DNA of 29,290 nucleotides from a virus. Lineage: Duplodnaviria; Caudoviricetes. The stretch is taken from the IMG/VR virus record IMGVR_UViG_3300044691_000225, positions 1 to 29,290 of that record. One strand, 5' to 3'. Position 1 is the first letter of the stretch. Every line of letters begins with the position of its first letter. Positions 23,255-25,698 of the stretch are shown piece after piece. The translations under genes and the position numbers were made by a program. The notes beneath the pieces are model-generated. The model was not told the DNA's origin and searched no databases. It was given only the letters and a program-made list of their open reading frames with translations.

Positions 23255-23475
23255 GGCGTGATTCCCGTGGCACGGTTTAATGCTTCAATTTGCTGTGGCG
23301 CACACATGCGGGCGCATCGGCGACAGGTGACTTCCAAAACATCGTCAGTCAACGCATTCGATGTACGCAGCCGCATCAGCCCGCCGCCGACACATGCCGC
23401 AAATCCAGGATGGCTTGCGGGGTAGCCGGCAGGCTTACGCCGCAAATGGATTTTGTAGTCGTGATAACAGTTCAT
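23251..23475 (-). CDS. Hypothetical protein (H...C...VTCxxC zinc-finger-like)
   Basis: AGGAG RBS; first gene after the internal promoter region. Confidence 0.6.
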   Translation of the reverse strand: MNCYHDYKIHLRRKPAGYPASHPGFAACVGGGLMRLRTSNALTDDVLEVTCRRCARMCAPQQIEALNRATGITP

Positions 23476-23580
23476 GTGGTGCGTCTCCTAAGCCAGCGGT
23501 ATTGCTGGATTAAGCATAGGGTCTCATAGCCTAGGTAGGGTGTCAATACCTAACACGTAATTTAACAAATTCACTGTTTG
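23476..23580 (-). promoter_or_regulatory. Internal leftward promoter/operator region
   Basis: AT-rich gap with TTGACA, TAGG...CCTA inverted repeat, TATGCT and a CCAGC-N6-GCTGG leader hairpin; -35/-10 spacing is non-canonical. Confidence 0.4.
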
Positions 23581-23589
23581 ACACCTCCC

Positions 23590-23772
23590 TCACTCGATTC
23601 GAAGGTCAATCTTTTCGGAATGGTGCCGCGATCTCAGCACACGGATGCCGCGCGGCAGTTCCTTGAATTGGCGGTCGGCCAGATGGTCCAGCAGCTCGCG
23701 CATGGCCTCCGGGTTGTCGCGCAGGTCCTGCCAGTAGTCGTGATTGATCTCTACGATAGTTCGTATGCTCAT
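23590..23772 (-). CDS. Hypothetical phage protein
   Basis: MSIRTIVEINHD...RHHS; coupled. Confidence 0.65.
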   Translation of the reverse strand: MSIRTIVEINHDYWQDLRDNPEAMRELLDHLADRQFKELPRGIRVLRSRHHSEKIDLRIE

Positions 23773-23954
23773 GTCTCACTCGAAACAGCGCCGCGGAACA
23801 TCAGCAGGAATCCCTCGTCGATACCCTCCGCCGGCCAGAATGCGCACCGCTCGGCGAACGGGCAGAGGACCGCCATCAGCCCTGTCGTGACCGGTGCGCC
23901 GCACTTGTCGCACGTCGGACAATCGTCGGGGACCTCGATGACGATCAGGCTCAT
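23769..23954 (-). CDS. Hypothetical Cys-rich protein
   Basis: CxxC and C..C motifs; ATGA coupling. Confidence 0.55.
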   Translation of the reverse strand: MSLIVIEVPDDCPTCDKCGAPVTTGLMAVLCPFAERCAFWPAEGIDEGFLLMFRGAVSSET

Positions 23955-24271
23955 GACTCACTCGATTTGGATGGCAGCAGTGACTTGAGGAAATCCACCT
24001 CGGAAACGGCGACGTTGTGCATGAACTCTGCGTCCTCGCTGTACTCGGCATCCTCGTAGTCTTCGTATGGCGTCCCGCGGCAGCCGCTGCGCCCGGTGGC
24101 TTCCCGCACCGGGCATCCATGGCAACCTCTCGGCAACAACGGGTTACATACCGAATTGAATTTCGCGCAGAGTGGGCAAGCCTGAGCGCCAGTATCGCCC
24201 CCGTTGTTCGCAACGATCGCCTCCCATTTGGCAATTGAGCCTTGTAGCGCTACTAGCGTCTCAGCTTCCAT
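23951..24271 (-). CDS. Cys-rich hypothetical phage protein
   Basis: SIAKWE...CPLC...CHGCPV...C..TPY pattern; GGGGA RBS. Confidence 0.7.
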   Translation of the reverse strand: MEAETLVALQGSIAKWEAIVANNGGDTGAQACPLCAKFNSVCNPLLPRGCHGCPVREATGRSGCRGTPYEDYEDAEYSEDAEFMHNVAVSEVDFLKSLLPSKSSES

Positions 24272-24292
24272 GTTTCGTTCCCCGGTCAGAAG

Positions 24293-24437
24293 TGGTACGG
24301 GCGGATGGAATCGAACCACCGACCTTCGGCTTATCAAGCCGCTGCTCTGCCACTCCCCGACCGTCGTCGGTTAGCGGGCGTGATTTTGGCGAACCTAGGA
24401 CGACGCCTCCATCACAACCCTGCTGAGCTACACCCGT
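24293..24437 (-). tRNA. tRNA-Ile(GAU) with 70-nt insertion in the D-loop
   Basis: Acceptor ACGGGTG/CGCCCGT + A + CCA; D stem GCTC/GAGC; anticodon loop TTGATAA; T arm GGTGG-TTCGATT-CCATC. Confidence 0.85.
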
Positions 24438-24442
24438 ATTGA

Positions 24443-24844
24443 TCATTTAATCGTTTCCTTCAATGGGCAGTCGTCGCGATGTTTCTTGCTGTAGCTGCCG
24501 TTCGGGCAGTTACAGTTCACCGTCGTTTCCGCAGTGATGCCTAGCGCCTTGCGTGCGGCGACAAGCCAGTGGTTGTCGTAGCCGCCGAGGTTGTTGAGGC
24601 GCAGATAGTCCACGTTATCGTCATACAGGCCGCGCAGCGCCGCCTCCAACTCGCGCACGCGATCTTCGGCTGTGCCCAGTTTGACACTCAGCGTGACCGC
24701 CGCGGCTTGCGCCTCGTCCACCTTGGCGGCGAGGGCGTCCCGCTCCGCCCGCACATTGATGACTTCCTGTATCAATTGCTCCACGCTTAACGAGCCGTCT
24801 TTGTTGGCGATGCGTTCGAGGATTGGATCAACCATGGTCATCAC
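24443..24844 (-). CDS. Hypothetical coiled-coil protein
   Basis: ERDAL...LEAALR...ARKALG pattern common in phage early proteins. Confidence 0.65.
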   Translation of the reverse strand: MMTMVDPILERIANKDGSLSVEQLIQEVINVRAERDALAAKVDEAQAAAVTLSVKLGTAEDRVRELEAALRGLYDDNVDYLRLNNLGGYDNHWLVAARKALGITAETTVNCNCPNGSYSKKHRDDCPLKETIK

Positions 24845-24883
24845 CTGGTTCTTTGCAGTGCTGTCATTTCGCTCATGGCTGAT

Positions 24884-25519
24884 TCATCCTGCAAGGGCCA
24901 GCGTGAAATTGACTGGTGCAATCTGCGATGTAACAGGGTTTCCCCACTGCGCTGCCATCGCCGCGGCTATACCCGCGTAAGTACGGCTGCGCTCCTTTTT
25001 CCGTTTCGCTCCCGGACCCATCCGATGAATCCTCGAACTGATGCGGCCTGGCCGCTTGCCACCGCCAACCGTTTTGTCTGGCTGGACGCAATCGGTCGGC
25101 ACAAGCTTGGGCAATCCTTTTAACCATAAGCATGTTGTCTTCCACTCCGGGTGGCCAAATTGCCACGGCTGAATAATCTGGTCAGGCTTGCGGAACTCGG
25201 CGCTCAGCCGACCGACCGGGTTCTCAATAGCGATGCGCTGGCAATCTGCTTGAGTGATCTTGAACACAAAGTTCAGCGCGTCGGCCTGTTCCTCGATCCT
25301 ATTCGGCCACCATCGAGCGCCAGACGACGCCAGATAGGTGCAGGGCGGGTGGGCAATGATCAAATCCCACCCAAGATCAAGGATTCCCAGTACGTCGCCT
25401 AGCACGTGAACTCCTGGCGTCTCCGGTGGCTGCGTGTCGCACGAAGTAGCGTCGTGGCCGGCTGCGGTGAACGCATCCCGGACCACTCCGCTGAACTCGC
25501 AGGCAACTAAAACCTTCAA
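24884..25519 (-). CDS. Short C5 cytosine DNA methyltransferase-like protein
   Basis: VLVACEFSG (motif I variant), AHPPC (motif IV), IENP (motif VI), QPWQFGH, RSRTY.GIA.AMA.QWG. Confidence 0.8.
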   Translation of the reverse strand: MKVLVACEFSGVVRDAFTAAGHDATSCDTQPPETPGVHVLGDVLGILDLGWDLIIAHPPCTYLASSGARWWPNRIEEQADALNFVFKITQADCQRIAIENPVGRLSAEFRKPDQIIQPWQFGHPEWKTTCLWLKGLPKLVPTDCVQPDKTVGGGKRPGRISSRIHRMGPGAKRKKERSRTYAGIAAAMAAQWGNPVTSQIAPVNFTLALAG

Positions 25520-25698
25520 AACCCTGTTCCCTTCGCATCCGAAGCACGTTTTAGCGCAAGGTCATACCGAACCTGCAGGCCATCAACTAGATTCTGCAAT
25601 TCCTGGTAGTCGCTAAACGCAACCCAACTACCATAGTCGTCTTGTTGCATGGCTGGCCCACCGGTTCTGTCGGTTGTGATATCCCATCGCTTAACCAT
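25516..25698 (-). CDS. Hypothetical protein (G.WV...DY motif)
   Basis: AGGGA RBS; overlaps the methyltransferase start. Confidence 0.6.
   Translation of the reverse strand: MVKRWDITTDRTGGPAMQQDDYGSWVAFSDYQELQNLVDGLQVRYDLALKRASDAKGTGF

Follow-up and report, generated by a model that had tools for sequence, protein, structure and literature searches.

The RNA C of phage T4 (species 1 RNA; NC_000866 70908-71046) is annotated as a stable RNA of 139 nucleotides (nt), and its role is described as unknown in excerpts of two papers (PMC3014915, PMC9697503). According to our own parse, it consists of a D stem, a 40-nt hairpin between position 15 and the GG, a long arm at the anticodon position and a T arm. 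Insertions in the D arm that annotation had overlooked have been described for Asgard archaea, as stated in an excerpt of a preprint (bioRxiv 10.64898/2026.10.13.758758). The gene analysed here lies in a window of 29,290 nt, the whole of virus record IMGVR_UViG_3300044691_000225, which is linear, 29.3 kb in length and approximately 75% complete. ARAGORN, Rfam and a cloverleaf parse identify on its minus strand a tRNA-Ile(GAU)-like gene of 145 nt with encoded CCA (24293..24437), whose D-loop carries an insert of 70 nt. Judged from its sequence, this gene is an enlarged tRNA-like phage RNA that is unusual in keeping a complete decoding arm. We tentatively read its product, with somewhat less than even confidence, as an unspliced 145-nt tRNA mimic built like T4 RNA C and probably acting as a decoy.

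Anatomy of the interrupted gene

The insert divides the gene into two parts. The 5' part (24423..24437, minus strand) comprises the acceptor strand, U8, A9, the 5' strand of the D stem, A14 and G15 and occupies a unique site in the contig: its 14-mer of acceptor strand, U8, R9, D strand and A14 is the only one of its kind on both contig strands, and the chance of meeting one within 300 nt is approximately 1e-4. The 3' part (24293..24352, minus strand; 36.4 bits with Rfam RF00005) provides U16, G18 G19, the 3' strand of the D stem, the anticodon arm with GAU at 24333-24335, a variable loop of 5 nt, the T arm, the acceptor strand, A73 and CCA. Excision of the 70 nt yields a cloverleaf of 75 nt, as claimed in the original prediction, with 7/7 pairs in the acceptor stem, 4/4 in the D stem and 5/5 in the T stem. 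U33, GAU, A37, A73, the encoded CCA and G15-C48 are all present, and the tertiary positions U8, A14, G15-C48, G18 G19 and A21 are in place together with the T-loop. The stems, GAU with U33 and R37, A73, CCA, G18G19, the T-loop and G15-C48 are thus those of a tRNA-Ile(GAU), and only the size of the D-loop is abnormal, with 72 nt between A14 and G18. The anticodon stem forms 4/5 pairs; as had been noticed before, a G27.A43 mismatch is the single flaw in otherwise intact stems.

Thirteen viral loci contain a tRNA-Ile(GAU) with the same anticodon arm, which was required by the search pattern. Twelve of them have an uninterrupted short D-loop and one is cut by the contig end, and all 13 carry G27.U43, so that G27.A43 represents a one-base change. 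Mismatches at 27:43 occur in 14 of 157 ordinary viral tRNAs, five of them being G.A. Because the uninterrupted phage tRNA-Ile genes share the same D-loop, we place the insert between positions 15 and 16 (24353..24422, minus strand). The ambiguity due to a duplicated AG was confirmed: it allows three equivalent cut registers, and the previously given 24355-24424 is another of them. ARAGORN with and without the insert, a check proposed earlier, recognised the 3' part and gave no single cut site, since many excisions of 66-71 nt tie at 118 under default scores. Both ARAGORN and Rfam find the 3' part and take a poor 5' strand from within the insert, the true 5' half being located 70 nt further upstream.

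Using ViennaRNA, the insert is predicted to fold into the two hairpins proposed before, namely a long hairpin P1 with a 3x3 internal loop (24376..24420, minus strand) and a short hairpin P2 of five pairs and a 4-nt loop (24357..24370, minus strand). The fold has an energy of -30.0 kcal/mol and a z-score of -2.16, and 9 of 200 shuffled sequences fold equally well. An assembly artefact had been named as an outcome that would overturn the prediction; a 1213-nt contig of run X1, however, covers positions 23523-24735 including the whole gene with 0 differences and therefore speaks against mis-assembly, although X1 is possibly the source sample and so not independent. A contig of run X7 (depth 2.5) agrees with the window over 24293-24353 except for 1 difference and diverges from it thereafter. 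In run X2, the one contig of a near-identical strain (depth 3.4) has other sequence at the tRNA site, which hints, if weakly, at an accessory gene. None of the contigs of X2-X7 covers the insert, and such gaps carry no weight.

A viral class with D-loop inserts

The survey for related genes was performed with patterns that all require a GCUC/GAGC D stem and is limited to that D-stem type. From 164 parsed loci, we retained 23 distinct viral genes with D-loop inserts of 23-80 nt, once tandem tRNAs had been removed and at least 6/7 acceptor and 4/5 T pairs were demanded. The acceptor stem is therefore a filter criterion, while the T stem and the 15-48 contact were not fully filtered for. The T stem is 5/5 in 22/23 class genes, and a 15-48 contact (G15-C48 or A15-U48) is found in 22/23 in comparison to 161/177 ordinary viral tRNAs, the latter being neighbours in the fetched loci with close relatives included and not a random sample. 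The anticodon arm behaves differently: it is canonical in 7/23 class genes vs 157/177 of these controls (Fisher p 5e-9), and among the inserts of at least 40 nt in 2/10 (Fisher p 4e-6 against the same controls). As a second comparison, a GTDB scan yielded 84 loci (86 parses), of which 48 passed the stem filters; 33 of those are archaeal, mostly DPANN, and a canonical anticodon arm is present in 32/33 of these archaeal D-loop-intron tRNAs. Genes that are spliced thus keep their decoding arm and the viral class mostly does not, a pattern that suggests an unspliced mimic.

The inserts of the class are mostly unrelated to each other, except for L135 with the metagenome locus L236 and three short tRNA-Glu cases. 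In the L135/L236 pair, both sides have changed in two insert pairs, one acceptor pair and two T-stem pairs (two sequences only), and the anticodon loop differs between the two. Three short class cases may be insertions after, not before, G18 G19. Standard tools returned no match at E 0.001 for two of five class records, and the class is probably undercounted because such tools misparse or miss these genes. Open reading frames (ORFs) near 25 loci (129 of 142 picked, searched with Pfam) had no neighbour in common, and TROVE, RtcB and EndA were absent from them. A literature search that covered enlarged D-loops and tRNA-like RNAs of phages, D-loop introns of archaea, evasion of nucleases and engineered D-loop inserts, with older and subscription papers and supplements outside it, found no description of a viral tRNA class enlarged in the D-loop, and the D-loop is not mentioned in PMC11555353.

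The search for homologous inserts that had been recommended thus had two results: the layout of a D-loop insert recurs in 23 viral genes, but no homologue of this particular insert was found. By blastn, the insert had no match in the phage collection and only fragments of E 2-6 in plasmids. An Ile-specific viral pattern scan gave no true insert among five candidates, and viral patterns with 21-113 nt between A14 and GG, one of which covered 36/64 parts of the collection, produced no homologue, including 0/19 in the longest class. The same holds for a metagenome pattern (18/64 parts), which mostly found tandem tRNAs, and for a GTDB pattern restricted to 37-67 nt. In an all-against-all comparison of 34 inserts (561 pairs), the best z for this insert was 2.5, which does not indicate a homologue. 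L034 was considered as a homologue on the basis of a shared 8-mer and rejected, as its folds are out of register (z 1.6). A dispersed repeat, either a repetitive extragenic palindrome or resembling a miniature inverted-repeat transposable element, was likewise discarded: the insert is single copy in the contig and has no further copies in the phage collection.

Several loci met during the survey deserve mention on their own. The D-loop-extended genes of L034 and L130 have a shortened anticodon loop around CUA, and a tRNA with CUA anticodon lies near L130. Bacterial genome bins with D-loop-extended tRNA-like genes are L335, L326 (Patescibacteria), L288 and L356, none with a canonical anticodon arm. 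In a complete phage record of 46 kb, L139 2994-3128 (+) is a lone Ile-type gene with UAU anticodon and 62 nt between A14 and GG, which shares G27.A43 and the T stem with the window gene; its insert is not significantly similar.

A proposed unspliced mimic and its rivals

The mimic reading was chosen because the class statistic suggests that D-loop domains do not go together with decoding. The RNA would be transcribed together with the flanking genes and trimmed by host RNases, and, as no splicing is envisaged, the 70-nt insert would likely stay in it. Positions 16-17 lie on the outer side of the tRNA elbow, where ordinary tRNAs differ in length, and a domain at this site could therefore spare the L shape and keep both acceptor end and anticodon accessible to isoleucyl-tRNA synthetase. 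The 145-nt product would likely keep elbow, acceptor end and anticodon and would probably be charged with isoleucine, whereas its decoding would likely be poor. It would probably act as a decoy of the T4 RNA C type, aimed at tRNA-attacking or tRNA-handling enzymes of the host. Of 283 Ile codons in 14 long ORFs of the record, 205 are AUC, which the host can already read with its own tRNA-Ile(GAU); a need for more codon-reading capacity therefore gives the phage little cause to have this gene. Of the three ideas offered in the original prediction, an enlarged tRNA that evades or decoys nucleases is the best supported as far as the RNA being kept whole is concerned, while its role as a decoy is a proposal by analogy.

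Several further points weigh against this reading. The window gene itself keeps a canonical anticodon arm, and nothing shows a departure from decoding. The insert has no homologue in Rfam, phage records or fetched loci, its predicted stability is modest, and an insert z below -1.5 was obtained in only 13/23 class genes. When the 145-mer is folded without constraint, the predicted pair probabilities are 0.88-1.0 for the stems of the acceptor, anticodon and T arms, but the D stem is not favoured, reaching only 0.26-0.27 due to competing pairings; forcing the cloverleaf costs 2.8 kcal/mol. Moreover, the class may mix several things, decaying genes included, and its comparison with ordinary viral tRNAs depends on the composition of the control set.

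The strongest of the alternatives, if an unlikely one, is a dead or neutral relic, in which an accessory tRNA was recently inactivated, either by tandem duplication or by the chance insertion of a hairpin, and its stems have not yet decayed. It is consistent with the orphan insert, with the other sequence at the tRNA site in the one X2 contig and with the loss of the anticodon arm across the class, which also fits decay. Metagenome loci, L166, L226 and L259 among them, contain tandem tRNA copies in which the 5' half of the second is damaged. The intact stems had been taken as an argument against decay, but they count as such only if the insert is old, since a recent insertion would leave them intact as well. 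In this regard, possible relics of a second tRNA-Ile copy can be read within the insert in tRNA register (24358..24414, minus strand), with features picked after inspection and mixed statistics. They include a U33+GAU-like relic (24411-24414), the end of a variable loop, a T-loop-like relic (24390-24394) and two 7-mers, one resembling the acceptor 3' strand (24374-24380; 6/7 pairing with the acceptor 5' strand) and the other the acceptor 5' strand (24358-24364; 6/7 pairing with the acceptor 3' strand). The combination of anticodon, T-loop and acceptor features in register was found in 0/20,000 shuffles and 6/5796 overlapping contig windows, the features having been chosen post hoc. Alignment tests gave p 0.008-0.66 over 14 schemes and 0.03-0.08 over four more, and profile tests gave p 0.03 with an Ile-GAU profile, 0.09 with a generic profile and 0.3-0.4 with the tRNA's own sequence. 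In register, 19/40 positions of insert and tRNA are identical. It is plausible that the insert arose as a tandem duplicate of the tRNA, with decay and refolding of the internal portions, which may also be its source in the mimic that we favour. If so, it would be old and half-diverged, and the outer cloverleaf would therefore have been preserved in its presence; keeping 16/16 acceptor, D and T pairs over this time needs selection and argues against a relic. Also at odds with decay are the T stem and 15-48 contact of the class, which are kept as well as in ordinary tRNAs, and the compensatory changes between L135 and L236.

Quite unlikely in our view is a shielded but working tRNA. In this scenario, the 145-mer would accept its amino acid and decode AUC/AUU, and host nucleases that hold on to the D-loop would be kept off by the domain at 15/16. 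The canonical arm, A73 and CCA would suit such a function. According to an excerpt of PMC12409363, a model places the PARIS nuclease AriB in contact with U16-U17 of tRNA-Lys, i.e. the site of the insert, and U16C impaired cleavage; phage tRNAs that evade host nucleases are described in an excerpt of PMC10264068. However, AriB was not shown to target tRNA-Ile, and the term tRNAIle does not occur in PMC12409363. Furthermore, a canonical arm is found in only two of the ten class members with inserts of at least 40 nt, and the ribosome would likely offer no room for 70 additional nt next to the elbow. In its broadest form, to which we assign the same small probability, this explanation would mean that phages armour working tRNAs by a folded domain at 15/16, here a recycled second copy, that bars tRNA-cutting defences while the ribosome accepts the 145-nt tRNA, and that an unrecognised viral class of such tRNAs is missed or misparsed by standard tRNA finders.

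A new small intron, excised by unidentified enzymes of host or phage so as to yield a normal 75-nt tRNA-Ile, is distinctly improbable. Excision does restore the D-loop layout of the uninterrupted phage tRNA-Ile genes (12/13 loci whole, 1 cut by the contig end), and position 15/16 is the site of the archaeal introns found in the GTDB scan. These archaeal introns repeat the 3' strand of the D stem at the end of the insert, which creates a bulge-helix-bulge at 15/16. In a strict test for this motif, requiring a 4-pair central helix between two 3-nt bulges together with an intron-side helix, 16/33 archaeal and 2/25 viral genes passed. The window gene failed with at best 3/4 central pairs plus 2, in line with the earlier remark that no clear bulge-helix-bulge is visible. 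Its lack is inconclusive when taken alone, because some archaeal D-arm sequences are also without the canonical motif (Asgard tRNAs, excerpt of bioRxiv 10.64898/2026.10.13.758758). The splicing endonuclease family EndA (PF01974) was detected in 0/23 virus records, including the approximately 75%-complete window contig, and in four archaeal controls, and RtcB in 2/23 virus records, neither of them the window contig. No group I or group II intron matched in Rfam at E up to 10, and junction sequences are not conserved across 34 inserts. A length of 70 nt is far below the known sizes of group I and group II introns. By its gene content, the phage has a bacterial host, because the record encodes a peptidoglycan peptidase and a virion protein approximately 37% identical to those of Yersinia, Pseudomonas, Escherichia and Salmonella phages, besides a podophage structural module and recombination genes. 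To our knowledge, bacterial hosts are without EndA. Together with the mostly lost decoding arm of the viral class, which is unlike true D-loop-intron tRNAs, these findings leave little of the mini-intron suggested originally.

Two observations on introns stand apart from the window gene. At the 33 archaeal genome loci (L286-L360), introns at 15/16 are found in many DPANN tRNAs (Asn, Phe, Lys, Thr). In addition, inserts resembling spliceosomal introns were found after G15 in L172 2994-3134 (+), L178 435-583 (-), L188 2983-3147 (-) and L340 1504-2313 (+, four copies); they start with GT, contain a branch-point-like motif and a pyrimidine tract and end with CAG, and the sequences on either side of them make up a normal D-loop. 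L340 comes from a bacterial metagenome-assembled genome and may be contamination. Our literature search found no paper on such inserts in tRNA genes, which are possibly more surprising than the window gene.

Very improbable, finally, are a Ro60-binding Y-RNA-like molecule, although positions 39-45 match the YrlA motif GNCGAAN0-1G (excerpt of PMC4201824) that 1/177 ordinary viral tRNAs also match, since the motif lies in the tRNA body and in 0/23 class inserts, the same anticodon stem strand is present in ordinary phage tRNA-Ile genes without an insert, the gene lacks the permutation of YrlA and has no YrlA match, and TROVE occurs in 2/23 records, the window contig not among them; and an insert kept for coding by a 61-codon open frame (24261-24446, minus strand), which spans the entire tRNA gene and overlaps the upstream gene at its stop and the downstream one at its start, but has no homologue among proteins of 33-107 amino acids (aa) and no Pfam match.

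Irrespective of the reading, the viral genes with D-loop domains are graded from canonical, represented by the window gene, to non-decoding, and constitute natural variants to probe the function of an enlarged D-loop. The window gene is a clean test case, since its insert-free form is an ordinary tRNA-Ile.

Genomic setting and comparison with known systems

The gene is the sole tRNA-like gene called on the record by ARAGORN and Rfam and is situated among short minus-strand genes, 5 nt past one stop codon and 21 nt ahead of the next start. The upstream ORF (24443..24844, minus strand; 133 aa) belongs to no significant family, and no related phages were located via its protein. The downstream ORF (23951..24271, minus strand; 106 aa) begins 21 nt after CCA and has three viral relatives. 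Three related loci reached via the flanking proteins have no tRNA gene at the matching site; the lone ARAGORN call among them, in L282, is on the opposite strand. Neither a sigma-70 promoter nor a minus-strand terminator was found in 23300-25600.

Two further groups of tRNA-like sequences came to light. A 346-kb contig has two such genes between its 23S and 5S rRNA genes: L182 2983-3136 (-) is tRNA-Asp-like with an 81-nt structured D-loop insert, and L182 3251-3407 (-) is a second tRNA-like gene of 157 nt with an enlarged anticodon region. A family in L162, L186, L200, L229, L249, L254, L256, L275 and L278 consists of tRNA 3' parts in front of which lie a D-stem start, a long hairpin and a short one; it has no pairing acceptor and short direct repeats upstream, and its members are likely attachment-site remnants of integrative elements.

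Among the described systems, Y RNAs of the YrlA type share with the window gene a tRNA mimicry that includes D and T arms, and the GNCGAAN0-1G match lies just before the variable loop (excerpt of PMC4201824). YrlA is permuted, however, and encoded near Ro60, whereas the window gene has the normal tRNA order, an anticodon and CCA, and TROVE/Ro60 was not found in the window contig, which is approximately 75% complete. RNA1 (144 nt) and RNA2 (125 nt) of phage T5 are likewise enlarged cloverleaf RNAs, annotated with unknown function; their extension is in the anticodon arm and that of the window gene in the D-loop. The archaeal 15/16 introns (33 archaeal genes, mostly DPANN) agree in site, similar size (37-65 nt) and hairpin fold, but the window gene differs by the lack of a bulge-helix-bulge, by its bacterial phage background and by the lack of EndA. 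T4 RNA C and the window gene are both phage-encoded and approximately 140 nt long, and both combine a T arm with a D stem enclosing a hairpin domain before the GG. A long non-decoding arm at the anticodon position, a poorly paired acceptor region and a location in a tRNA cluster are found in T4 rnaC only. In contrast, the window gene stands alone and has a full Ile anticodon arm and a 7/7 acceptor stem. The likeness seen between the two is one of layout, with no sequence homology shown.
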